From: a virus
Lineage: Duplodnaviria > Caudoviricetes
Length of the DNA stretch: 64,000 bases
Strand: one strand, 5' to 3'
Virus record (IMG/VR): IMGVR_UViG_3300031867_000006
Location: 101,770 to 165,769 of that record
The first letter of the stretch is position 1, and each line of letters starts with the position of its first letter. The notes beneath the pieces are model-generated. The model was not told where the DNA came from. It saw only the letters and a program-made list of their open reading frames with translations, and did no database searches. The position numbers and the translations under genes are program-made. Of this stretch, positions 519-61,688 are shown piece after piece.

Positions 519-2246
519 TTATCCCTCGTTGTCTCTAATATCTGCAGTGTAAATATTATGCATTGGCGTCTGTACAAGATACTGATTGCTGGTAAACATA
601 AGGATCAGAATCTTATTGATTGTCTCCAGAATAGCCACATCTGACTTAATGGAAGACTTAACCTTACCATCGCAATCATTAGTCCTGATATTTAGTGGGC
701 ACTTCTTCTTAATCATAAGATCAATAAGCTTATCAAGCTCATCCTTATCTGTAATATTATACAGAATAGAGATAAGCTCAGTATATGCCTTAAGCAGAAT
801 ATTAATAATATTCACGCAGCTGTTATCAAGATCTTTAGATTCGCTAAGCTCTTTAAGAGCCCGCAGAGCCATGAAGTTAGCTCCGTAACCAACGCCTTCC
901 TTAGCAGCAGATCTACAGTTAAATACAGCATCTTCTACTGAAGCCTTGAGATTATTCCTGTCGGAGATAGTTACTCCGCCGACCATAAAGTCAATCATAT
1001 TACCCTTGAAGCTATTAAGACGACGCTTAGTATTCTGAATCTCATTGGTACCCTCAGCACCATCAATAGCCTTCTGTACTCTGCTTTCAAGCCAGTTTAC
1101 CATAGCTTTATAATCATCAGAATACTCACCATTCTCATCAAACATATTTCCAGGTTTAACGAACTTGGTCTTATAATCATCAGCTGTTACAGCCTCAGCA
1201 GTACCGCAGAAATCAGTAATTGTCTCCATTGTAGGTGCTAAGCCCTTCTCCTGATCCTGTTCCTGGAGATCGAGATTGAGATACTTCTTAATGAATTTGG
1301 CGCCGCACATCTTTGCGATATCATCATACATATAATCCTCTGTAATATCTGATACAATAATAAGAGGAATGTTAGCACCCGGCTGCTTACACAGATTGAT
1401 TACATTATCGAAGTAGCTCTGTGTGTCAGGAGAGATCTGATGGCACATAATGACTGTCGGTACATACTCATACTCGCTTCTGGGATCGACTGCACGGATG
1501 ATATTATCATTGATGATCTTCATTACAAAATTTGTCATCTCAGGCGTATCGATAGCATCTTTAAAGCAGTATACTCTGGCATTGGGCACTGTCTTATTGA
1601 ATGCAGAATCTGCAGCCCCTGTCTCGATAGTCATACCATCATACTCTTTAATGATATTCTGTACTTCTGGAGATTCAAGAACATCAATGAATACATCTAA
1701 ACCGTACTTCTCATATACATTCTTGATAGTCTGTGAGATCTCCACATTGTTATTAGTAGAGATCAGCGCAATATCATAGATATCATCAAGAGTACAATCC
1801 CACTTATAGGAGTAGATCTTATCCTTAATGATTTCGAATGTCTTATTAAAGATATTAACAACATCCGAAGGCGCCCAACTCTTCATAACTTCATTATTGC
1901 AAAGTACATCAAACAGAGTCTTGCAAAGAATAACAGCAGATGTGGTTCCATCGCCGACTTCCTTAACAATATGAAGAGTAAGATCTCTAAGCAGATCCTG
2001 TACAGAACGCTCGATAGGGTTAGCAAATAAAATATTGCTTACTATAGTATGACCGTCCTTTGTATATTCGATAACAATATTAGCCTCATTAGGGTCCATA
2101 TTCTTAACGAACGCTGTTGTAGATCCCTTAGGTCCAAAAGATTTCTTTACTGCATCAGAAATTATAGTGAGAGTTCTCTGCTGAACGTCTCTAACTATCT
2201 CCTCTGGAACAATATTAGAGTAAATTTTAGTCACCATTTGTTTCAT
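519..2246 (-). CDS. Phage GroEL-like chaperonin
   Basis: FGPKG, TKDGHT, VGDGTTS and EDAVFNCRSAAKEGVGYG chaperonin motifs; 575 aa. Confidence 0.92.
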   Translation of the reverse strand: MKQMVTKIYSNIVPEEIVRDVQQRTLTIISDAVKKSFGPKGSTTAFVKNMDPNEANIVIEYTKDGHTIVSNILFANPIERSVQDLLRDLTLHIVKEVGDGTTSAVILCKTLFDVLCNNEVMKSWAPSDVVNIFNKTFEIIKDKIYSYKWDCTLDDIYDIALISTNNNVEISQTIKNVYEKYGLDVFIDVLESPEVQNIIKEYDGMTIETGAADSAFNKTVPNARVYCFKDAIDTPEMTNFVMKIINDNIIRAVDPRSEYEYVPTVIMCHQISPDTQSYFDNVINLCKQPGANIPLIIVSDITEDYMYDDIAKMCGAKFIKKYLNLDLQEQDQEKGLAPTMETITDFCGTAEAVTADDYKTKFVKPGNMFDENGEYSDDYKAMVNWLESRVQKAIDGAEGTNEIQNTKRRLNSFKGNMIDFMVGGVTISDRNNLKASVEDAVFNCRSAAKEGVGYGANFMALRALKELSESKDLDNSCVNIINILLKAYTELISILYNITDKDELDKLIDLMIKKKCPLNIRTNDCDGKVKSSIKSDVAILETINKILILMFTSNQYLVQTPMHNIYTADIRDNEG

Positions 2247-13332: not shown

Positions 13333-15192
13333 TTAGCCGTTGAACTCTTCCGGAGCAACGTTAGTATTGGTAGTAGCATCAAAACTAGCGTACACTTTCT
13401 GGAGATCGTTGTTCGCATATAAAAGTTCAGAGCCAGGGATGAGCTGTTCGTCAGTCGGTGTAGGAAGGTACTCACGGATTCCTGTAGGATTAGCCACTAA
13501 GATCCGCCCTTGAACCGGCTGATACTCCCAGAATTTGTACCTCTGGAATGCAGTAAGTGCAGGCAATGCAGGATTAGCAGCACTTCTCACCTCATTCGAT
13601 ATATAGAGCATATAATCGTAGCAACGATATACAATCCTATTGCTATTCTTCGGGTTAAGAAGAACGATGATAGAATCGTCACCATACATCTTATCGGAAC
13701 TGATGAAGTTGTATACACGCTTGGTGGAGCTTACTACAGTCTTGCGATAATTGAGCTCGATCGGGCCAACGTTATCGCCTGTCTGATAGCTGAACTCCTG
13801 AGGAATGATCTGCTCGATGATGCCAGGGCGAGCTACAAGGCTGATCTCCATATTAGGATCACGCAATACAGTAAGAAGGCCGCTGATGTAGTTATTCAGG
13901 GTATTCATAAAAGTCTTGCGTAACCACTCAAGGTGATCACTGTAGTATCCATCGCGGGGAGCGAAGTCGATTGTTCTCTTAAGTCTGTTGTTGTCATCCA
14001 GACGAAGGAAGCTCTCGTTAAGCTCGTTATGGATATCGTCATCCTTTACGTTGTCCATGATATCCTTAATGATGCTCATGTACTTAGTAACCTGATTGAT
14101 GCCATACATAGCACCGATATCCTTAACTTCCTCGGGAGTGATAGGTACGGTAATACCATCATTCTCAGGGATCTGCACGAAAGTTGTACGTTCCTGCCAT
14201 TCAACACGGCTGGTCTTAAGCTGGCGAGTAGAAGCGTCATAGCGAGCTGCCATCTTAACAGCCTTGATATTTCCGCCGGAGTTGATCTCGAACATGTTAT
14301 CCTTCTCGGTTGCGTACAGAGAATCATGGAAGTCCTTAGTAGTAGTTGCGGAATCTGCAAGTACCATATCTACGGGCTGCATGATGATTCTGTTGTAATC
14401 ACCGTATCCAGGATTAAACTCAGCTTTCCAGGGCTTCCATACTAATGCCTTACCAGCAGAAGCAGCCTTAGACTCTGTAATTGTACCGTCGTTACCAATT
14501 GTAAGTACATCAGCGCCTGCAGCAACATACTCTTCTACTGCAACTGCACAGATATGTGTAGCAACGGAAAGATTGTGATCTACGCGAGGCACATGGAAAT
14601 ACTCGTTAAGGATATCAACACTATTAACCTCGGGAAGAGCAATAGCTACTTCAACTACAGGGTTAGCAGACTTCCAAGCCTTGAAGATCTGGTTCTGCTG
14701 ATTAGCGATATCGATACGAGTTCCATCGGGAGTTACCATGTAACGAGTTTCCATAGTCTCAGTCCATGAAGGCGCCTCGGCTACGAATCTCGGGATAGCC
14801 TGTGCGAATACACAGTTAAGCATAAGGTACTTATGCATAGGCAGTGAAATACCTACCATAGGATTGTACTGTGCAAGACCTGCAACAGCATTTTCCTGAA
14901 CGGCCTGCATATCGTTAAGGAACAGTGCCTTCATATCCTTAACGTGATCCTCATACTGAGCCTGAGTCATATTGTTCTTATCACCAACGAGGGAATCTTC
15001 TACGAAGAACTCCTGAAGAGCATCCCTATTGGAAGGAATAGAAAGCGTGTGAATGGGATCAAATCCGTAGTTCACATGACTTTCACGCAGCATATTCTGC
15101 TGGGTCTCTAAGAATTTCTTAGCATAACCATACATGGGGTTTTTAGACATATCACCCATGTTACGGGTTTTTCTTTGTCCTACCTGCGGCAT
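13333..15192 (-). CDS. Major capsid protein
   Basis: 619 aa, strong codon bias and RBS, late motif at 15249-15260, downstream of an acidic scaffold-like gene and near the prohead protease; call is contextual. Confidence 0.75.
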   Translation of the reverse strand: MPQVGQRKTRNMGDMSKNPMYGYAKKFLETQQNMLRESHVNYGFDPIHTLSIPSNRDALQEFFVEDSLVGDKNNMTQAQYEDHVKDMKALFLNDMQAVQENAVAGLAQYNPMVGISLPMHKYLMLNCVFAQAIPRFVAEAPSWTETMETRYMVTPDGTRIDIANQQNQIFKAWKSANPVVEVAIALPEVNSVDILNEYFHVPRVDHNLSVATHICAVAVEEYVAAGADVLTIGNDGTITESKAASAGKALVWKPWKAEFNPGYGDYNRIIMQPVDMVLADSATTTKDFHDSLYATEKDNMFEINSGGNIKAVKMAARYDASTRQLKTSRVEWQERTTFVQIPENDGITVPITPEEVKDIGAMYGINQVTKYMSIIKDIMDNVKDDDIHNELNESFLRLDDNNRLKRTIDFAPRDGYYSDHLEWLRKTFMNTLNNYISGLLTVLRDPNMEISLVARPGIIEQIIPQEFSYQTGDNVGPIELNYRKTVVSSTKRVYNFISSDKMYGDDSIIVLLNPKNSNRIVYRCYDYMLYISNEVRSAANPALPALTAFQRYKFWEYQPVQGRILVANPTGIREYLPTPTDEQLIPGSELLYANNDLQKVYASFDATTNTNVAPEEFNG

Positions 15193-30255: not shown

Positions 30256-30346
30256 CCAGTCTGGACTGGAGTCGAACCAGCAACTATAACAATCTTTTCT
30301 GCACGCCGAAAATGATTGTTCGCTTTCCCAATTAAGCTACAGACTG
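30256..30346 (-). tRNA. tRNA-like element with elongated anticodon arm; identity not assignable
   Basis: Acceptor CAGTCTG/CAGACTG, D arm GCTT/AAGC, T arm GCTGG-TTCGACT-CCAGT; anticodon arm has 12 bp and an 8-nt loop; no encoded CCA. Confidence 0.6.
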
Positions 30347-52173: not shown

Positions 52174-53100
52174 ATGGCTGCATCTGATTACAAAATCAAG
52201 AATCCTGGAAAAAATCAGCTTGTTACTGATATTTTCGGCGGCACTAAAAAGTTTAAAGACGTTAGCACATATCGTCTTATGCGTGGCGTTCCTGACTTTG
52301 GTTCTCTCGTACAGTTTAATCCTTACGAGACAGGTTATGCTGCGTTCATCATCTGCCAGCTTCCCAAGTTTATTCAGAAGTTAGCTGAAAAGACTAGTGG
52401 GGACAATAGCTACAGATCACTTATCCAGAACTGGGCTCATATTATCGAGTATGAATTCAAGTCATTTGATGGTCTTGAAGACATCTCTACTGAGACTATT
52501 CAGCTCGGCGACGACCTTAATAGCATCAATGTTATTAATAAGGTTAATATGCAGTCCGCATCTGACTTTACACTTACTTATGATGAGAAGTCTGGTTCTC
52601 CTCTGACTAAGTTTGCTAAGCTTTATCTGTTTGGTATTAAAGATCCTCGTACACAGGTTAAGACATATCATGGTCTTATCTACGATGGAGTTATGGAGCC
52701 TGGATTTGAAAATGAAGTATTCACTTTCTTATTTATGACTACCGATAATACCATGCGCAAGATTGAGTCTGCATATCTCATTATCGCAGCTCAGCTCATG
52801 CAGGCTGATACCAGTATCTACAACTACACCAAGGGTGATATTGGTAAGAGGGAGATTTCTGTAAGGTTTAACGGCTATCCGATTCAGTCTAGTAAGATTG
52901 ATTTGGCCGCTCAGGAGATGCTTGATTATCTGCTTAGCGCAGACGCAGGCGCTCGTCAAATCATCGTTAATTCGCTTAACTATGATTACACGGGTCAGGA
53001 GCTTATTGGTAAAACTACTAATAGCTACGGTGGATCTTCTAAGTATGCTAAGGCTGTTAATACCAAGCCTTATAAGACAGATTCCACATTGCAGTACTAA
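52174..53100 (+). CDS. Tail tube protein
   Basis: Follows the sheath gene; beta-rich with FTLTYDEKSG...GIKDPRT. Confidence 0.65.
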   Translation: MAASDYKIKNPGKNQLVTDIFGGTKKFKDVSTYRLMRGVPDFGSLVQFNPYETGYAAFIICQLPKFIQKLAEKTSGDNSYRSLIQNWAHIIEYEFKSFDGLEDISTETIQLGDDLNSINVINKVNMQSASDFTLTYDEKSGSPLTKFAKLYLFGIKDPRTQVKTYHGLIYDGVMEPGFENEVFTFLFMTTDNTMRKIESAYLIIAAQLMQADTSIYNYTKGDIGKREISVRFNGYPIQSSKIDLAAQEMLDYLLSADAGARQIIVNSLNYDYTGQELIGKTTNSYGGSSKYAKAVNTKPYKTDSTLQY

Positions 53101-53167
53101 TATTTTGTACAAGTTGTGTGCTTTGACGGCTCCTAGGGAGAAATCCCTAGGAGTTCATTTTGTCTAA

Positions 53168-54092
53168 TACGCCGATAATAAATCCATCATCAGAATCCAA
53201 GTCTAGATCAATACCATATGATCTAAATAAACCAAGGCTTGCTCTATATTGTTCAGGTAATATTTGTACACAAGTCCATCTATGATCCCATCCAATACCT
53301 CCTCTTGTACTGCTTCTAAACCACCAATGACACATCGCCGACATTAATATTAGGAAATGATTGAGCAGTAGCCCATTCGATATAATGACTTTGATAGCCA
53401 TAATGTATACAAAAACAACCTAGAGCTCTATTATCAATTCTATCTTGCGAATTAGCAGATCTATTCCACCAAGCCATCGCCGTAATTTATATTACCACCT
53501 CTATTAGCAGCCCATTCCCAATGAGGACCAATTATTGTATTAGCAGAATCAACATATGTAGCACCAAATGATATAATTTGATCGTCATATCCATTATTAT
53601 GCGTTACAGCATTCCTATACCAAAAACTCATCGCCGACATATCTTATACCATCAACACCATTCTCATGATGATGTGCAAATTGAACATTGGTTAAACCAC
53701 TAGTGAAGCATTCAACAAAAGCCATTAATGCATAATTATAACCTATATTATGATCATTATTTGGACCGGATCTGAGCCACCAGCCCATCGCCGATGCCAT
53801 CTTTCCATAAACTATGACCAGAAGTACCATCAGCATTCCAATAAGATTCCCCATTAGGATTTATCCACCCACAAAATTGTACTTTTATATTAAATTTATC
53901 ATTATTACAAGCAGATCTACAATAATATCCACACATCGCCGATATTATTTTTATAATCAAAAAAGGTATATCCAGTATTAGCATAACTAACATCACCCGT
54001 TCTTTGTATGTCTCCAAAACATGTAAATTTTTCTTGTTCATAATCATTAGTAGGATTAGATGATCCTGATCTTAACCACACCCTCATCGCCG
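53168..54092 (-). repeat. Cassette array 1: six CGGCG(ATG)-delimited coding cassettes
   Basis: CATCGCCG on + at 53333, 53475, 53629, 53786, 53934 and 54085, terminal TACGCCG at 53168; unit lengths 151, 148, 157, 154, 142, 166. Confidence 0.92.
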
Positions 54093-54100
54093 AAAAGTTA

Positions 54101-54126
54101 CCCAGAGTGCACAATGGCACTCTGGG
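54101..54126 (-). terminator. Hairpin terminator between the portal gene and array 1
   Basis: CCCAGAGTGC-acaatg-GCACTCTGGG. Confidence 0.75.
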
Positions 54127-54157: not shown

Positions 54158-56560
54158 TTAGCCTTCGGCTTCACCCATATTCTCAGGATTTGAGATATAG
54201 TCTTTAATAGATTCTTGTTTAGCTTTGTTGTAAAGTTTCTCAAGTACATCTTTACGGACATATGAACCTAAACAATACATCTTATAATCCTTAAGGAACT
54301 TTGCTTTAACTCCTTCATCAGGTTCATCAGCAAGCCAGATATTAGCAACATTCTCGCAATAATCATTAGTGTTTACAATAAGCTGATTGGTATTGGTTAC
54401 ATTAATGAATAGAGGCGGAGGTAGCTGCATAACAATTCTCTCAATAGAGTTGAACTCTACATCATACAGCTTAGTTAAGAAAGGATTAAACATGTATTCT
54501 GTATCAGCCTGCAGATCGTATATCATCCTAAGGAACTTGCTGTTGGACATAGTTAATTGCATAGCATAATCAGGAGATTGTCTAGATACAATTATTTCCA
54601 AAGGCACACCTGTAGGATTGATAGCTGATTCTTCTAATAGACTAAGAAGTTCTGTTTTAATCTCTACCTGCTGACCTTGCATGATTTCAAACTCTACTGG
54701 AGATTGTCCGTCCGGTCCTCTTGGAATGATATAATCATTGAATCTACCAGTAATATTAAGTATTGAGTTAATATTCTCAACCTGGCGAATATTGAAGTTT
54801 GACTTCTTAATTTCGCTTATGGTCTTAAGCAATGTCTTACTAATATTAGTATCAACACTCTGCCTTACATAGTAAACTCTCTTATCGTTACCTCTAGTCA
54901 TTACAGCGAGGCAATTCGTTATATAGATAGCCACCCAAAGCTTTGCAGGAATAAGACTAAGCTCAAGAGCAGACCTTCCGCGACCAGTCTTCTCATCAAG
55001 ATCAAGATAGAGATGAGTAATGTCCTCCGGGGGAATATAGCTAACTCTGATTGTTTTATGCTGCTCAAGCCCATGAAGAAAATCATCATTATATTTAAGA
55101 ATATAATAAATCTCCTTCTTAAGGTCCTGGTTAGCATTGATAAATGAAGCATCAATCTTATCAGCAAGATTAGATGCTATTGATCTAAGCAACTGCTCCT
55201 GGCGAGTCCATAAATCAGCATCCTTCTGTCCCGGTGACATAATACCATTAACAGAGTTAACTAAACCAGTAGTGGTGTAAGTCTCATCCCATAAATAATC
55301 AGATTCATCATAATCAAAATAATAATAACCAAGACAAACCTTATTCTCCAATATTATAGGACGTACTCGTTCTCGGTCTAATTTACGTACTATACACCCA
55401 TTGATCTCTTTTATGCGTTTAGATTGAATATGGTGATTACTGGTACGCTCAGCGTTCCCATCGATGTCGTCTGGAAGCTCTAAATCATCGTCAATCGTAT
55501 GATCAAAATTATGATGTGTAGGCAATTTAGTATGTTTAGGCTCCATATCGAATGTATTCTTAGATAATTCTACGCCTGAACCAGCTATAGTACTATCATA
55601 TTCATAAATAGCCTGTTCATGCATTAGAGTATTCTCATACATAAACTGCTCGGTAAGAGATGTACCAGCAACTTTGCTATAAGCATCAGTAATACTCTTT
55701 TCTTCAGATACTATAGAAGATATAATACCATTCTCGAGCTCTACATTAAGATCACCAAATTCTATATTTGCTTTGCTGAGCTTATTAATATCGTCCTCTG
55801 AAGCAATAGTTTCTATACCGCTAGCAGACTCCATAATTACAGGCGAATTCTTATTGGTTCTAGAGATCTTAAGACTTCCCATATTGGCTTTATTATCCAT
55901 CAATCTCTGGATAGCCTTGGTATATGGTACATTGTAAATAAAGACCTCACCATATTTAAGGATCTCCTTAAACCATTTCTTAATATCTTTGCTTAATCCA
56001 TATTTAGTCTTAAGCGTTTCAATATTGCGATCAAACTGAGCCTTATTTTCATCTGATATACCGATTACAGACTCAAAGTTTAAGAAGTCCTTAGAGAACG
56101 AATCTGCAGATAATACATTATCCACGATTGTTTCAAGAGCCTCATCTAGCTTAGTCATGTATTTAAGGACTTGGTCAATCTCATCATCATACATCTTTAT
56201 CCATCTATTATCAAGATATGTAGATGTAAGATTATTCATAAATTCAGAATCTGAGAATATACTCTCAAATTCTCTATTTATAGCCTCATCGCCATTTTTA
56301 CTTAATAAGATCCTCTCATATAACTTGCTAATGTTAGGCTCACCAATAGAATCTTTGCTATTGCTTATAATAGCATTAATTGAATTGGTTATATCAGTCC
56401 TTATATGCTGAAGCTGCTGCTTATTCTCAGGACTAGTAAAATAAGTAGATCTATATAATCTATCAAGGGTATTTTGGGATCTTGCAGCAATCCGCTGGTT
56501 CCTAGGCAAACTCTTAGTTTGCTCATTATCTAACCCTTGATCCTTATCATTATCTGGCAT
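54158..56560 (-). CDS. Portal protein (T4 gp20-like)
   Basis: MTRGNDKRVYYV...DYIIPRGPDG..PVEFEIMQG resembles gp20 ITRAPERRIFYI...DYWLPRRDG; late motif upstream. Confidence 0.8.
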   Translation of the reverse strand: MPDNDKDQGLDNEQTKSLPRNQRIAARSQNTLDRLYRSTYFTSPENKQQLQHIRTDITNSINAIISNSKDSIGEPNISKLYERILLSKNGDEAINREFESIFSDSEFMNNLTSTYLDNRWIKMYDDEIDQVLKYMTKLDEALETIVDNVLSADSFSKDFLNFESVIGISDENKAQFDRNIETLKTKYGLSKDIKKWFKEILKYGEVFIYNVPYTKAIQRLMDNKANMGSLKISRTNKNSPVIMESASGIETIASEDDINKLSKANIEFGDLNVELENGIISSIVSEEKSITDAYSKVAGTSLTEQFMYENTLMHEQAIYEYDSTIAGSGVELSKNTFDMEPKHTKLPTHHNFDHTIDDDLELPDDIDGNAERTSNHHIQSKRIKEINGCIVRKLDRERVRPIILENKVCLGYYYFDYDESDYLWDETYTTTGLVNSVNGIMSPGQKDADLWTRQEQLLRSIASNLADKIDASFINANQDLKKEIYYILKYNDDFLHGLEQHKTIRVSYIPPEDITHLYLDLDEKTGRGRSALELSLIPAKLWVAIYITNCLAVMTRGNDKRVYYVRQSVDTNISKTLLKTISEIKKSNFNIRQVENINSILNITGRFNDYIIPRGPDGQSPVEFEIMQGQQVEIKTELLSLLEESAINPTGVPLEIIVSRQSPDYAMQLTMSNSKFLRMIYDLQADTEYMFNPFLTKLYDVEFNSIERIVMQLPPPLFINVTNTNQLIVNTNDYCENVANIWLADEPDEGVKAKFLKDYKMYCLGSYVRKDVLEKLYNKAKQESIKDYISNPENMGEAEG

Positions 56561-56628: not shown

Positions 56629-56979
56629 TTACTCCATTGTATATGCAGCAAAATAGCTGGAAAGATCCTTATTATGCTCATTTATAATCTTCTTAGCAAC
56701 ATCTTTAGGTACTTCTTTCATAACTTTGAACTGGTCATCATTAAAGTGCCATATTCTCATATTTGCTGGTGTATCAAGATGTGAGCCTAAAAAGCTAAAC
56801 TGCTGTACATATATAAATTCACTTAGATCCTCATCCTTACCAAAGCTAGGGTTCTTACATTTAAATACGTAAGCACCGCTGGGCAATTCATAAACTTTAT
56901 TTACTTTCATATATCCTCCATTTCCGCTAGCTTGCATACCATTCATATTGTTTGCAATGAGTGTTTTCATTAGATGCAT
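56629..56979 (-). CDS. Hypothetical protein
   Basis: True start likely MKVNKVY after GGAGG (~56910). Confidence 0.6.
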   Translation of the reverse strand: MHLMKTLIANNMNGMQASGNGGYMKVNKVYELPSGAYVFKCKNPSFGKDEDLSEFIYVQQFSFLGSHLDTPANMRIWHFNDDQFKVMKEVPKDVAKKIINEHNKDLSSYFAAYTME

Positions 56980-57048
56980 ATGTATTGGAGCCGAATATTT
57001 ATATATAAATAGGGTTACAAAAAATAATAGCGGAAGTATAAACCTCCG

Positions 57049-57684
57049 CTATAATTTAAGATATGATATATAAATATATACGTTAAGCTTTTTCTTTATT
57101 CTAAATCTAACCTGATATGTAGGCCCATTATTATCTATTACAGATATAAATAGCTTATCAGTCTTATTTAAAGCGAATAGATTATAGAATAGGGTCATAA
57201 AATAACGACCTCTATGGACGTAATACATTGGCCCGCTACTCTTGCGCAATCCATAAAGATCCTTAAGCTCTTCAGTAACGTCTTCTTCTTTGAGATCCCA
57301 TTCTGATTCTACTCTATTATCTATTGCAGCCAGCTCATTTAATCTACCTAATATAAAATTGGTAATAGTATTATTTTTTCTGACTGTACAGATATTGTCT
57401 TTGGCTACAGACTTTAGAGTATTCTCATATCTAGATTCATCAATCTCAAATTCAGACTCTATACTAAGCTTGCTAATGAAAGAGCTCAGCTCTCTTGTAC
57501 CAAAGATTAATCCCACACCTAACGGTATTCCGCTTAGTCTATCAGGATTAATCTTAACTCTACAAGAATAAACCTTATAGTTATCCAATCCGATTACGTT
57601 ATTATTAATAAACATGAAGCTTTGGTTCTTAATATATTTCCCAGCCTCATTAATAACAACCAGATCGCTTAATGTTAAGACCAT
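57049..57684 (-). CDS. Hypothetical protein coupled to the DNA polymerase N-terminal subunit
   Basis: Overlaps the polymerase stop; GGAGGTG RBS. Confidence 0.7.
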   Translation of the reverse strand: MVLTLSDLVVINEAGKYIKNQSFMFINNNVIGLDNYKVYSCRVKINPDRLSGIPLGVGLIFGTRELSSFISKLSIESEFEIDESRYENTLKSVAKDNICTVRKNNTITNFILGRLNELAAIDNRVESEWDLKEEDVTEELKDLYGLRKSSGPMYYVHRGRYFMTLFYNLFALNKTDKLFISVIDNNGPTYQVRFRIKKKLNVYIYISYLKL

Positions 57685-59597
57685 GACATCACCTCCGTGG
57701 AAGGCATCTTGTCGACTTTAACACACATATTTCTCTTCTTAGTATTATCTACTATATGGCACATTGTTCTTTTCTGCTTATTATTAATATTAATACACAT
57801 AATCTTCTTACCATTACGATTAGAATAATACAATCCCTTCATAGGATTTTTAATCTTCGTAAAGTAGTCTATTATGCTATTATACATCTCCTCATATGTC
57901 GGTAAATTAAGATATCTATTACAGAAATCCAATCTATTATGAGATACGAGATCCTCAATAAACCATACAGATCTATTGAAATATGGATTATTAAATCTAT
58001 CTTCTTTACTATCCAACTTGTTAGGCAGCAATATCTTACCCAATTGGGTTGCCGGCGACATATTTGATTCATCGATGATATTTGGATACAACGCGCGATA
58101 ATCGAAGTCATCTAAATTATCCAAAATGTTAATAGGTCTGCCGTTCAGCTTACGCTTTGGCTTGGCTGAGACAAAAATTGGGTTCGCTACGTAGGCGCCG
58201 GCGAACCCAACTTTTCCATTGTTCTTATTTATATTATTGCCCATCACATAGCCTTGCGGTTGCATTTCCCAAAAGTCTTTAATTCCACGATTAACAAGAT
58301 ACGTTGTCTGTCTATGAACTTTAGCGAATCTTGTGTTAGTAGCTAATGCTTTACTAAATAAGAAGCTAAGATCTCCAACCTTCTTATCTATACATAACTG
58401 CACGATAGTATCACAAACATTATAAAATGCAAACGTTTTATATGATAATCTTGGTAATTTAGCAATATCATCAGTTATATGACTATAATCAAGCTTTCTA
58501 ACACCAGCCACCACATCGCCTATAAAATCTAATTTGAATGATGTAATTCCACCCTTCTTTTGACCTTTCCTGCGTGACGCAAATAATATAAGCTGATCTA
58601 TATACACAGTATATGAACTAACCTGTCCATAATCTCCACGTTCTTCAAACTTCTGTGCTCTTTTGTCAATATAATACCAACATTCTTGAGTGCGGAAGTC
58701 TGGATGACAGATTATTTCACATGGATCGTAACCTAAGATTTTAATACGTTCTATTAGGTATGGAAGGTCGAATGCGATATTCCATGCTACTGCAAATTCA
58801 GGTTTAATAGTATTAATAACTTTAAATAGATCTGTTATTAATTTAATCTCATCTTCATATAGCATTATAGAATATTCATATTGATCTAAACCATATTCTA
58901 ATTCCTTCTTCCATCCACCGACATTTTCTCTAACAAATGCTTTCAATTCATCTGTTATTCCAGGTGTCTCTATAAATGGATGTATCTGGAAATTATCCTC
59001 ATCATCTAATAGAAGTACATATACTTTTTTATTCTTAGTATCTATTAGAGTTACTGCGTTGACTGGACATTCTCCAGGTTCCGGGAATGTACCTCGCATA
59101 TTAACGATATCAGCCTCGATATCGAAGAAGACTACATCTGGTTCATATGGTTCATTTCTATATAATCTATCGAACTCCATTCTATAATAATCTTCTATAT
59201 GCATATCTGCATTAAATATGGTTGGTATTGTAAAGAGTTTATCATTCTCTTTATAATTACCACTCTTTAGATTATCAAAGAAGAAGTTTAGATTATCTGT
59301 TTTAGCAGCTATATCCTTCTTTAAGTCTCTATATTTACACTCCACAGGATGAACTTTCTCTTTCTCTATACATAACTGTGGAGTCGGCACTCTAACATTC
59401 GCATTAGCCATATAATAAGTATAATTCGGTGAGACTATATGCTGAACTTTCTTTTGCCCAGTATCCAAATCTTTAAATACTATATCTATAGAATCATTAG
59501 TCCAACCGCCCTCACCATCTCTCTGGCTTTTATGATAAATTGCGTTTATTATTGTTATATTTGCTCCAGGTTCATAACCTTTAATTCTGAAAGGCAT
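57675..59597 (-). CDS. Family B DNA polymerase, N-terminal subunit (3'-5' exonuclease plus motif A)
   Basis: FDIEAD (ExoI), WNIAFDLPYL (ExoII), YNVCD (ExoIII), DFDYRALYP (motif A). Confidence 0.9.
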   Translation of the reverse strand: MPFRIKGYEPGANITIINAIYHKSQRDGEGGWTNDSIDIVFKDLDTGQKKVQHIVSPNYTYYMANANVRVPTPQLCIEKEKVHPVECKYRDLKKDIAAKTDNLNFFFDNLKSGNYKENDKLFTIPTIFNADMHIEDYYRMEFDRLYRNEPYEPDVVFFDIEADIVNMRGTFPEPGECPVNAVTLIDTKNKKVYVLLLDDEDNFQIHPFIETPGITDELKAFVRENVGGWKKELEYGLDQYEYSIMLYEDEIKLITDLFKVINTIKPEFAVAWNIAFDLPYLIERIKILGYDPCEIICHPDFRTQECWYYIDKRAQKFEERGDYGQVSSYTVYIDQLILFASRRKGQKKGGITSFKLDFIGDVVAGVRKLDYSHITDDIAKLPRLSYKTFAFYNVCDTIVQLCIDKKVGDLSFLFSKALATNTRFAKVHRQTTYLVNRGIKDFWEMQPQGYVMGNNINKNNGKVGFAGAYVANPIFVSAKPKRKLNGRPINILDNLDDFDYRALYPNIIDESNMSPATQLGKILLPNKLDSKEDRFNNPYFNRSVWFIEDLVSHNRLDFCNRYLNLPTYEEMYNSIIDYFTKIKNPMKGLYYSNRNGKKIMCININNKQKRTMCHIVDNTKKRNMCVKVDKMPSTEVMSWS

Positions 59598-59701: not shown

Positions 59702-60611
59702 TACGCCGGAATAATGCATTATACCATTGCTAGGACCAGAATAACTAGGGTTGCCAGAAATACCAGACATAAAACAGAAGTTTGACCAATTATAACCTGG
59801 TTTAACAGCTGATCTGTTCCACCAATAATCCATCGCCGTATAATTGATCATTAGGCCAATACGCAATACGCTCAGCAGGTTGAGCATTTGGTTCACATGA
59901 TACAAATGAGGAATTATATCTATATACATTAAAAGGGCTTGATAGATATTGAGCGCTCATGTCGCCACTTAGTGTCCACCAAGTCATCGCCGCCAGTAGT
60001 ATTAGTACTAGCACTATTACCAGGATGATCAGTATTAGTTGGATTTAAAGAATGCCAATTTTGTAAATTCTGCCATTGCATAGAATGTGATTGTATTGCA
60101 GTTCTAGTCCAACACCACATCGCCGTAATTTAATGGTTGATCAGAATAATCAGTTGTCCAATATGAATTAAAAGCAGTACCATACCAAAGAACATCACCA
60201 TTTTTATCAACAACAACTGCAGCCCTAAGATGCAAATTAGCCCTAGTATCTTGGCTATTCATTGATCTTGACCACCAAATCATCGCCGAATTTAGTATAA
60301 TCATAATATTTATTCATATACATATTAAGAGCATTACCATTGGTCTCGATTAATAATCCAACATCAGTTATTTTCCAACCACTAGATGCTTGAGCACTAG
60401 ATAAATTTTTTGGAATACTTCTTAACCACCAATACATCGCCGATATCAAATGTATATCCAGCATCACCAGCCCAAAGACCATAAACATTAATTCCATTTA
60501 TCTGTCTAATATTACAATATACAACAAAAGCGCCAGTTTTCTTATTCAGATCACCAGTTGTTTCCGCATTTACATATACGGCTGTTCTTAACCACCAATA
60601 ATCCATCGCCG
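59702..60611 (-). repeat. Cassette array 2: six CGGCG(ATG)-delimited coding cassettes
   Basis: CATCGCCG on + at 59831, 59985, 60118, 60281, 60435 and 60604, terminal TACGCCG at 59702; unit lengths 169, 154, 163, 133, 154, 130. Confidence 0.92.
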
Positions 60612-61652: not shown

Positions 61653-61688
61653 AAAATAATTCCCTAGGCACTAAGCCTAGGGAGTTTA

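Follow-up and report, generated by a model that had tools for sequence, protein, structure and literature searches.

What are the repeated units that lie between two virion structural genes of this rumen jumbo phage, which encodes an RNA polymerase, and how did they come to be there? We examined them in the window, a 64,000-nt stretch of DNA covering positions 101,770 to 165,769 of the viral record IMGVR_UViG_3300031867_000006, and in the rest of that record. The record (165,769 bp) is referred to here as the 165-kb contig, and its positions are given as genome positions. The original prediction was that the units, which form array 1, are transcriptionally insulated and increased in number by repeated insertion at a CGGCG core, much as integrons or CRISPR arrays acquire theirs. 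The features that bear on this question are collected in Table 1.

Table 1. Positions of the arrays, their cassettes, and the related features discussed in the text
Feature	Position	Strand	Details
Intrinsic terminator hairpin, upstream virion structural gene ("portal," 54158-56560)	window 54101-54126	-	10-bp perfect stem, tail TAACTTTT; terminator scan and inverted repeat I3
Array 1 cassette 1	window 53942-54092	-	151 nt; peptide MRVWLRSG...NNIG
Array 1 cassette 2	window 53794-53941	-	148 nt; peptide MCGYYCRS...DGIG
Array 1 cassette 3	window 53637-53793	-	157 nt; peptide MGWWLRSG...RYVG
Array 1 cassette 4	window 53483-53636	-	154 nt; peptide MSFWYRNA...INYG
Array 1 cassette 5	window 53341-53482	-	142 nt; peptide MAWWNRSA...INVG
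Array 1 cassette 6	window 53175-53340	-	166 nt; peptide MCHWWFRS...FIIG
Array 1 closing core	window 53170-53174	-	CGGCG, then T (read G-V); CGGCGT also ends arrays 2, 3, and 4 and the E cassette
Terminator hairpin of the tube-like virion structural gene (52174-53100, convergent)	window 53128-53155	+	12 pairs, tail CATTTTGT; terminator scan and perfect inverted repeat I6
Array 2	window 59704-60611	-	6 cassettes of 169, 154, 163, 133, 154, and 130 nt; closing CGGCGT
Array 3	genome 92393-94079	+	11 units; one broken (unit 7), two with an ATA start
Array 4	contig Ga0326511_10000159 (54,149 bp)		10 units, all 3n+1; leading unit degenerate and preceded by a hairpin
Solo cassettes (two)	genome about 71371-71535 and 74186-74346	+	flank an 847-residue gene; junctions slightly different (GGCGATG ... 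CGGCGC)
Gene E	genome 13693-14628	-	311-codon open frame with one cassette
E cassette	genome 13868-13720	-	148 nt (3n+1)
DGR locus	genome 25333-28000 (L333 13333-16000)		complete; outside the window
DGR variable region (VR)	genome 25333-25459		at the end of gene T
DGR template repeat (TR)	genome 26304-26430		127 nt (3n+1)
DGR reverse transcriptase	genome 26984-27685		PF00078, E value 1.5e-11; at least 127 kb from array 1
70- to 93-nt element, intergenic copies	window 56932-57012 (-); genome 77922-78014 (+); L332 15823-15915		98 to 100% identical
70 nt of the same element within E	genome 13907-13976	-	38 nt upstream of the cassette, sense orientation
tRNA-like gene	window 30257-30345	-	Rfam tRNA, 29.2 bits (gathering score, 29)

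Array 1 consists of six units, each with CGGCGATG at its head (cores at 54092, 53941, 53793, 53636, 53482, and 53340). The first core lies 8 nt past one terminator hairpin, and the closing core ends at 53170, 14 nt short of the convergent hairpin (about 15 had been predicted). These two terminators are the only elements in the region that form strong inverted repeats, and sigma-70-like promoter matches occurred at chance level only. The insulated position was confirmed for array 1, with a terminator behind it and a convergent one ahead, and the same arrangement was found just before and just after arrays 3 and 4. PHROGs describes the product of the portal gene only as "virion structural protein, head and packaging" and that of the tube-like gene likewise as "virion structural protein." The gene that precedes the tube-like gene encodes the tail sheath. 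Many terminator hairpins of this phage have a palindromic CCTAGG core in common (window positions 53128 to 53155 and 61658 to 61686; genome positions 92205 to 92230 and 94095 to 94120).

Removing all of the units on paper collapsed array 1 to TTTT-CGGCG-TATT and array 2 to GATT-CGGCG-TAAT, exactly as the original prediction had it. From this collapse, an empty array 1 state would be expected to read bare TTTTCGGCGTATT between the tube and portal-like genes. Searches for relatives by means of the portal-like protein found none in the viral or genome contig collections, and blastn against a phage collection gave no match; neither an empty nor a partly filled array 1 was seen. The TTCGGCGTA proposed as common to the collapsed sites holds for arrays 1 and 2. 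However, it does not extend to arrays 3 and 4 or to the cassette in gene E (see below), whose closing junctions have only CGGCGT in common with those of arrays 1 and 2. Within the window, CGGCGATG occurs 13 times, compared with 0.43 copies expected by chance, and arrays 1 and 2 account for six copies each, all on the minus strand. The 13th copy (positions 1949 to 1956) falls by coincidence inside the VGDGTT (VGDGTTSAV) motif of a GroEL-like chaperonin gene (window positions 519 to 2246, minus strand).

Array 1 is one of several. The 165-kb contig contains three arrays and two solo cassettes, and array 4 is on a second, 54-kb contig. Array 2 lies upstream of the DNA polymerase gene, in an intergenic region whose other side is the start of a divergent gene. 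The leading unit of array 3 is degenerate, as is that of array 4. Throughout, the cassettes are arranged head to tail and abut directly at an invariant word, CGGCGAT(G). This word reads CGGCGAT(G/A) at 33 of 33 junctions, synonymous positions included, in a genome with a GC content of 36%. Unit length is also constrained. All six units of array 1, 22 of the 23 on the 165-kb contig, and all 10 of array 4 are 3n+1 nucleotides long.

The units have the properties of coding sequence. Those of array 1 are open from an ATG to the next core and have (Y)G-D at the end, and the unit consensus is M-x-W-W-x-R-S ... Y-G. Over 1,161 codons, the cassette frame has five stops, compared with 73 and 179 in the other two frames. 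The five are taken to belong to one broken unit, unit 7 of array 3, which has three in the printed frame. Outside the junction word, there is little conservation. When 37 units were compared, the interiors of every pair except one were similar only at near-background level, and units of the same array were no more alike than units from different arrays. Because the word is invariant even at synonymous sites while the unit interiors have diverged, this pattern points to a putative DNA-level function of the word.

One cassette is inside a gene, and this is what gives the units an identity. The cassette in gene E lies between CGGCGATG and CGGCGTT (...GGSAM-NWWLLS...NNG-VSPFCAI), and the C-terminal 56 residues of E correspond to one unit. 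Its left core is read xCG-GCG-ATG and its right core xxC-GGC-Gxx. Because these cores are one frame position apart, a cassette must be 3n+1 nucleotides long to keep the tail of E (VSPFCAI) in frame, and the arrays follow the same 3n+1 grammar as the E cassette. E scored 22.1 to 23.7 bits against Pfam PF19789 (DUF6273), for which the cutoff is 23.5 bits, whereas a sister gene, T, scored 31.1 bits. All seven E homologues in the database (7/7) carry PF19789. Pfam searches with single cassettes gave no match, and an AlphaFold2 model of E, made from a nine-sequence alignment, had a pLDDT of 45, which is too poor for a fold test. DUF6273 has been described as a C-type-lectin-like domain with a DGR variable region at its C terminus, in likely receptor-binding proteins (PMC10743442; bioRxiv 10.1101/2024.10.15.618418). 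Judged by these comparisons, the array units are homologous to the variable segment of approximately 50 residues at the C terminus of a DUF6273 (C-type-lectin-like) protein.

The same segment is the target of a DGR in this phage. The DGR is complete. Gene T encodes its 915-residue target, a protein with Ig repeats that terminates in DUF6273, and alongside are an Avd-like ORF, the template repeat, and the reverse transcriptase gene. Between the template repeat and the variable region, 17 of 18 mismatches are at template adenines. In an alignment of E, T, and their homologues, the cassette and the DGR variable region cover the same segment, and the left core of the cassette maps no more than 2 nt from the 5' edge of the T variable region. 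Because the cassette matches the C-terminal DUF6273 segment that the DGR varies, the units would be alternative versions of a binding-site segment rather than foreign inserts. This departs from the original prediction, in which the units were acquired inserts; they appear instead to be paralogous coding cassettes of the DUF6273 variable segment. Asparagine is abundant in several of these sequences, making up 23% of solo cassette B, 24% of the E cassette, and 36% of the DGR template repeat.

Might the units be templates for the DGR reverse transcriptase? The template repeat itself has cassette grammar: its length is 3n+1, TCGCG flanks it on the left, and CGGCG follows immediately at the 3' end. 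However, the array units have no nucleotide similarity to the template repeat or variable region, and the differences between units are not adenine-specific. A second version of this idea is that an array encodes a polyprotein, read by serial +1 frameshifts at GGC-GAT-G and perhaps aided by a tRNA-like RNA. A shift of exactly +1 is what all of the junctions would need, and the tRNA-like gene has UUUUCGGCGU in an enlarged anticodon loop. However, that loop has the same sense as the core and is not its complement, so it cannot decode the core. For this reason, quadruplet decoding by the tRNA-like RNA was rejected. Also, the arrays have no start signal, and the homologues show that a unit is a C-terminal end, not a repeat module. 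Taken in either version, this explanation is extremely unlikely. As for the tRNA-like gene itself, it was missed by ARAGORN, and its anticodon loop has about 16 extra nucleotides, which make up an extended stem capped by the loop GGCGUGCA, in which UUUUCGGCGU has the sense of the collapsed array 1 site. This match to the core may be due to chance, with CGGCGT occurring about 14 times on that strand.

The open frames of the units might also mean that each unit forms a small gene of its own, with a product of about 55 residues whose translation begins at the unit ATG and is coupled to the preceding, overlapping ORF. Consistent with this, each ORF extends from the unit ATG for 3 to 18 codons into the next unit before it stops, and the resulting tails, G-D-x-L-V-x, mimic a terminal beta-strand. 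However, the stop arises automatically from T-AGA (Arg) in the other frame. A 5-mer Shine-Dalgarno sequence precedes 0 of 32 unit ATGs, whereas one was found at 65 of 92 long ORFs (71%) and at 3% of random sites. Two units begin with ATA rather than ATG, and the frame is broken in one unit. No start signals accompany the first unit of each array, which is behind a terminator. Furthermore, the segment is only part of a lectin-like fold and is unlikely to fold by itself. Therefore, we regard the small-gene explanation as very improbable. The cassette in E has a GGAGG 7 nt upstream of its ATG, and given this sequence a stand-alone peptide may be translated from it.

At the head of its open frame, gene E has no in-frame start codon. 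The ATG found there is next to a run of GGGG and out of frame by one base (genome positions 14600 to 14640, minus strand; L239 about 2240 to 2280). The first in-frame ATG is codon 64, and it has no Shine-Dalgarno sequence. The out-of-frame ATG could reflect a frameshift, phase variation, or a dead gene. E itself may be silent or dependent on a frameshift, with the working acceptor elsewhere in the unassembled part of a genome that is about 59% complete.

If units and gene are versions of one another, then cassettes might move between them. Among the 37 units, the only similar pair was the E cassette and unit 9 of array 4. These are identical at 153 of 153 nucleotides (100%), and the identity stops exactly at both CGGCG cores. 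Because it ends there, CGGCG is, as far as these breakpoints tell, a real recombination joint. This upholds the part of the original prediction that placed recombination at the core, as distinct from its view of the units as acquired foreign DNA. A search for shorter E fragments returned only P0019, which is the E cassette in its array context and comes from contig Ga0326511_10000159. Searches of the viral contig collection with the interior of the E cassette and with P0034 found nothing.

No movement of an array 1 unit was observed. At the nucleotide level, the 54-kb and 165-kb contigs have no genes in common. Both nevertheless follow the array grammar, carry a 93-nt element (98% identical between them), and encode proteins with C-terminal M-C-R-I-V tags. 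Either the 54-kb contig is the remainder of this phage's genome, or it comes from a close relative that co-occurs with the phage. The element is present, over 70 to 93 nt, at three intergenic sites, and 70 nt of it are also found within the coding region of E, where they encode conserved DUF6273 residues. A terminator follows one of its intergenic copies, which could be a small RNA. An AT-rich word that precedes the 70-nt element is not recurrent. The tags, which resemble K/R-x-M-C-(R/H)-I-V, are at the C termini of several unrelated proteins (window positions 57678 to 59597, minus strand, and ORFs of L332), including proteins of the 54-kb contig, and three repeats of the tag are at the end of a polymerase piece.

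We also aligned Logan contigs from four bovine-gut and related runs to the E/DGR locus. Contigs of the source run are interrupted at the borders of the duplicated E cassette, as expected if both cassette contexts coexist in the sample. In run X3, which represents a relative with roughly 90 to 99% identity, one contig continues from the E body through CGGCGATG into a different cassette (MVWRQRSA...). In a second X3 contig, position 1715 is joined to position 1864, so that 148 nt are skipped; five letters are shared at the joint, the depth is low (2), and the short side measures 23 nt. This core-to-core joint suggests that the cassette in E was either absent or replaced.

A joint of this kind might be read as the empty site of an insertion system, which returns us to the explanation that was originally put forward: insulated arrays that grew by repeated unit insertion at the CGGCG core, with CGGCGT as the empty site and acquisition into the arrays as the process at work. 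CGGCGT does close all of the arrays as well as the E cassette, and the X3 contig possibly represents a real empty site. The last unit of array 2 retains a tail, GVIISCII, that resembles the E tail GVSPFCAI, as if it were a seed copy. Also, units within an array are no closer to each other than to those of other arrays, so simple tandem duplication is not evident. However, the expected machinery was not found. Searches of the 165-kb contig for tyrosine recombinases (PF00589, E value of ≤1), serine recombinases (PF00239), and Cas1 found none, in a genome that is about 59% complete, and the contig has no integrase or resolvase. The units contain no attC-like inverted repeats. The sole recent copy is at position 9 of 10 in array 4, not at the array end, and therefore does not fit simple polar addition there. 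Finally, units that are paralogues of one protein segment are not what such a mode of acquisition would collect. Growth by insertion is compatible with the library proposed below, but as the explanation of array 1 we consider it unlikely, and the comparison with integrons and CRISPR arrays fails on the features that define those systems, as searched for in the 165 kb.

It could also be argued that the arrays are debris with no present function: fossil copies of gene ends that illegitimate recombination left behind at a microhomology. One unit has a broken frame, the leading units of arrays 3 and 4 have decayed, and E looks truncated at its 5' end. Set against this are the open frame retained in 32 of 33 units, the 8-nt word that is invariant even synonymously when the interiors have diverged to background, and the existence of a perfect recent copy. 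Decay on its own is therefore a very unlikely explanation.

The explanation that we favor, and consider probable although far from certain, is that array 1 belongs to a silent library whose 35 or more coding cassettes recombine at the core. The library would include arrays 1 to 3 and the two solo cassettes on the 165-kb contig and array 4 on the 54-kb contig. Each cassette would encode an alternative version of the approximately 50-residue, variable, ligand-binding C-terminal segment of a DUF6273/C-type-lectin-like protein. Cassettes would be copied from the arrays into an E-type acceptor, changing what the phage binds. Crossover might use the GC-rich core and the adjacent TGGTGG as short homology, or the core might be the site of a putative nuclease. 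The terminator-flanked positions would keep the store untranscribed, and the terminators around arrays 1, 3, and 4, together with units that have no ribosome-binding site, fit such silence. The basis of this proposal is fourfold: homology of the units to the variable segment, a frame that is kept without translation signals, an exact copy of a whole cassette, and a different cassette in a related strain. Against the mechanism, 5 to 8 bases are very short for ordinary homologous recombination, and no recombinase or nuclease could be linked to the core. A more elaborate possibility, which we think unlikely, is a two-tier repertoire for one binding fold. The DGR would make new tips in one gene, an integrase-free and CGGCG-specific machinery would cut and paste or copy whole tips between the silent arrays and an acceptor gene, and the arrays would be a growing, heritable memory of useful tips, in line with the acquisition that was originally predicted.

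Silent-cassette gene conversion is known in bacteria from Neisseria pilE/pilS, Borrelia vlsE/vls, and the Treponema tprK donor sites. As those systems are generally understood, they and the phage have in common many promoterless, frame-kept variant cassettes in arrays and one gene with a cassette in frame. In each, cassettes are copied between store and gene so that part of a surface-binding protein varies, although for the phage this exchange is read from sequence alone. Two hallmarks of such systems were found here: a store that has no expression signals and yet is in frame, and a cassette shared by store and gene with breakpoints at the cores. There are differences as well. The phage appears to exchange whole cassettes rather than mosaic segments, and its joint is an invariant word of 5 to 8 nt at which the units abut, whereas the bacterial systems use tens of bases of flanking homology. 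The phage is also a virus, with at least four scattered array loci.

Other systems resemble the arrays in part. Integrons also have head-to-tail, promoterless coding cassettes at a short conserved core, and a precise "empty" junction is conceivable in both. However, no IntI-type recombinase was found in the 165-kb contig, the units have no attC hairpins (none recurs per unit), and the cassettes are fragments of one protein that would be used by in-frame fusion, not whole unrelated genes. CRISPR arrays have direct repeats of 23 to 47 nt, noncoding spacers, and Cas1, whereas the repeat here is 8 nt, the "spacers" are open reading frames, and no Cas1 was found in the 165 kb. Invertible tail-fiber segments and shufflons (Mu Gin, P1 Cin, p15B Min, and R64 Rci) likewise provide alternative C-terminal ends of binding proteins by DNA rearrangement at short sites, but no invertase or Rci-type recombinase was found here, and arrays 1 and 2 and E are co-oriented. 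Since the distance between cassettes and gene can reach about 150 kb, and most cassettes are in direct orientation, exchange would have to proceed by copying and not by inversion. In T-even phages, glycine-rich motifs and His boxes delimit the hypervariable segments of gp38 and gp37 and act as recombination joints, with exchange between coinfecting phages. The phage examined here is similar in having short conserved motifs as joints, but it differs in keeping a private, intragenomic store of dozens of segments. DGRs that act on DUF6273 or C-type-lectin targets (BPP-1 Mtd; gut-phage tentaclins, PMC10743442) diversify the same variable segment of the same fold. Unlike their products, the array units vary in length and are alike only in the junction word, and the diversity is stored rather than generated by mutagenic reverse transcription.

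We also looked for such arrays elsewhere. Exact-pattern scans of IMG/VR for the junction grammar found only GC-rich chance matches or unrelated in-frame repeats of 18 or 45 nt and no further array. A word-index search with a profile of the units returned only their own or nearly their own units. However, when the profile was run against 1.84 billion proteins, it matched small unit-like ORFs that are absent from the 165-kb contig, P0019 among them, and such ORFs proved to be present in other datasets. One of the proteins found in another dataset, P0023, is a homologue of array 2 unit 1 with a tail that implies a different neighboring unit. The profile also matched P0009, P0025, and P0026, which are very large proteins with the repeat TSPDGITWT.RTAAEAN.W.SVTYGNGLFVAV (54 copies in one protein of 6,424 residues). 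The likeness of the units to these repeats (W..R...YGxGLxV) is probably superficial. Full-text literature searches found no description of such a silent-cassette system in a virus.

The known routes by which phages vary their receptor-binding proteins are point mutation, hypermutation by DGRs, the inversion of segments, and recombination with other phages. If the silent library proposed here is real, then a private store of silent cassettes, exchanged at a five-letter joint, would be a further route to the switching of host range or ligand. Its logic would be that of bacterial antigenic variation, yet in a virus, and beside a DGR that acts on the same fold. It would account for the intergenic "junk" arrays of jumbo phages, in which alternative specificities could then be read, and would provide a natural scaffold-plus-cassette design for the engineering of binding proteins.
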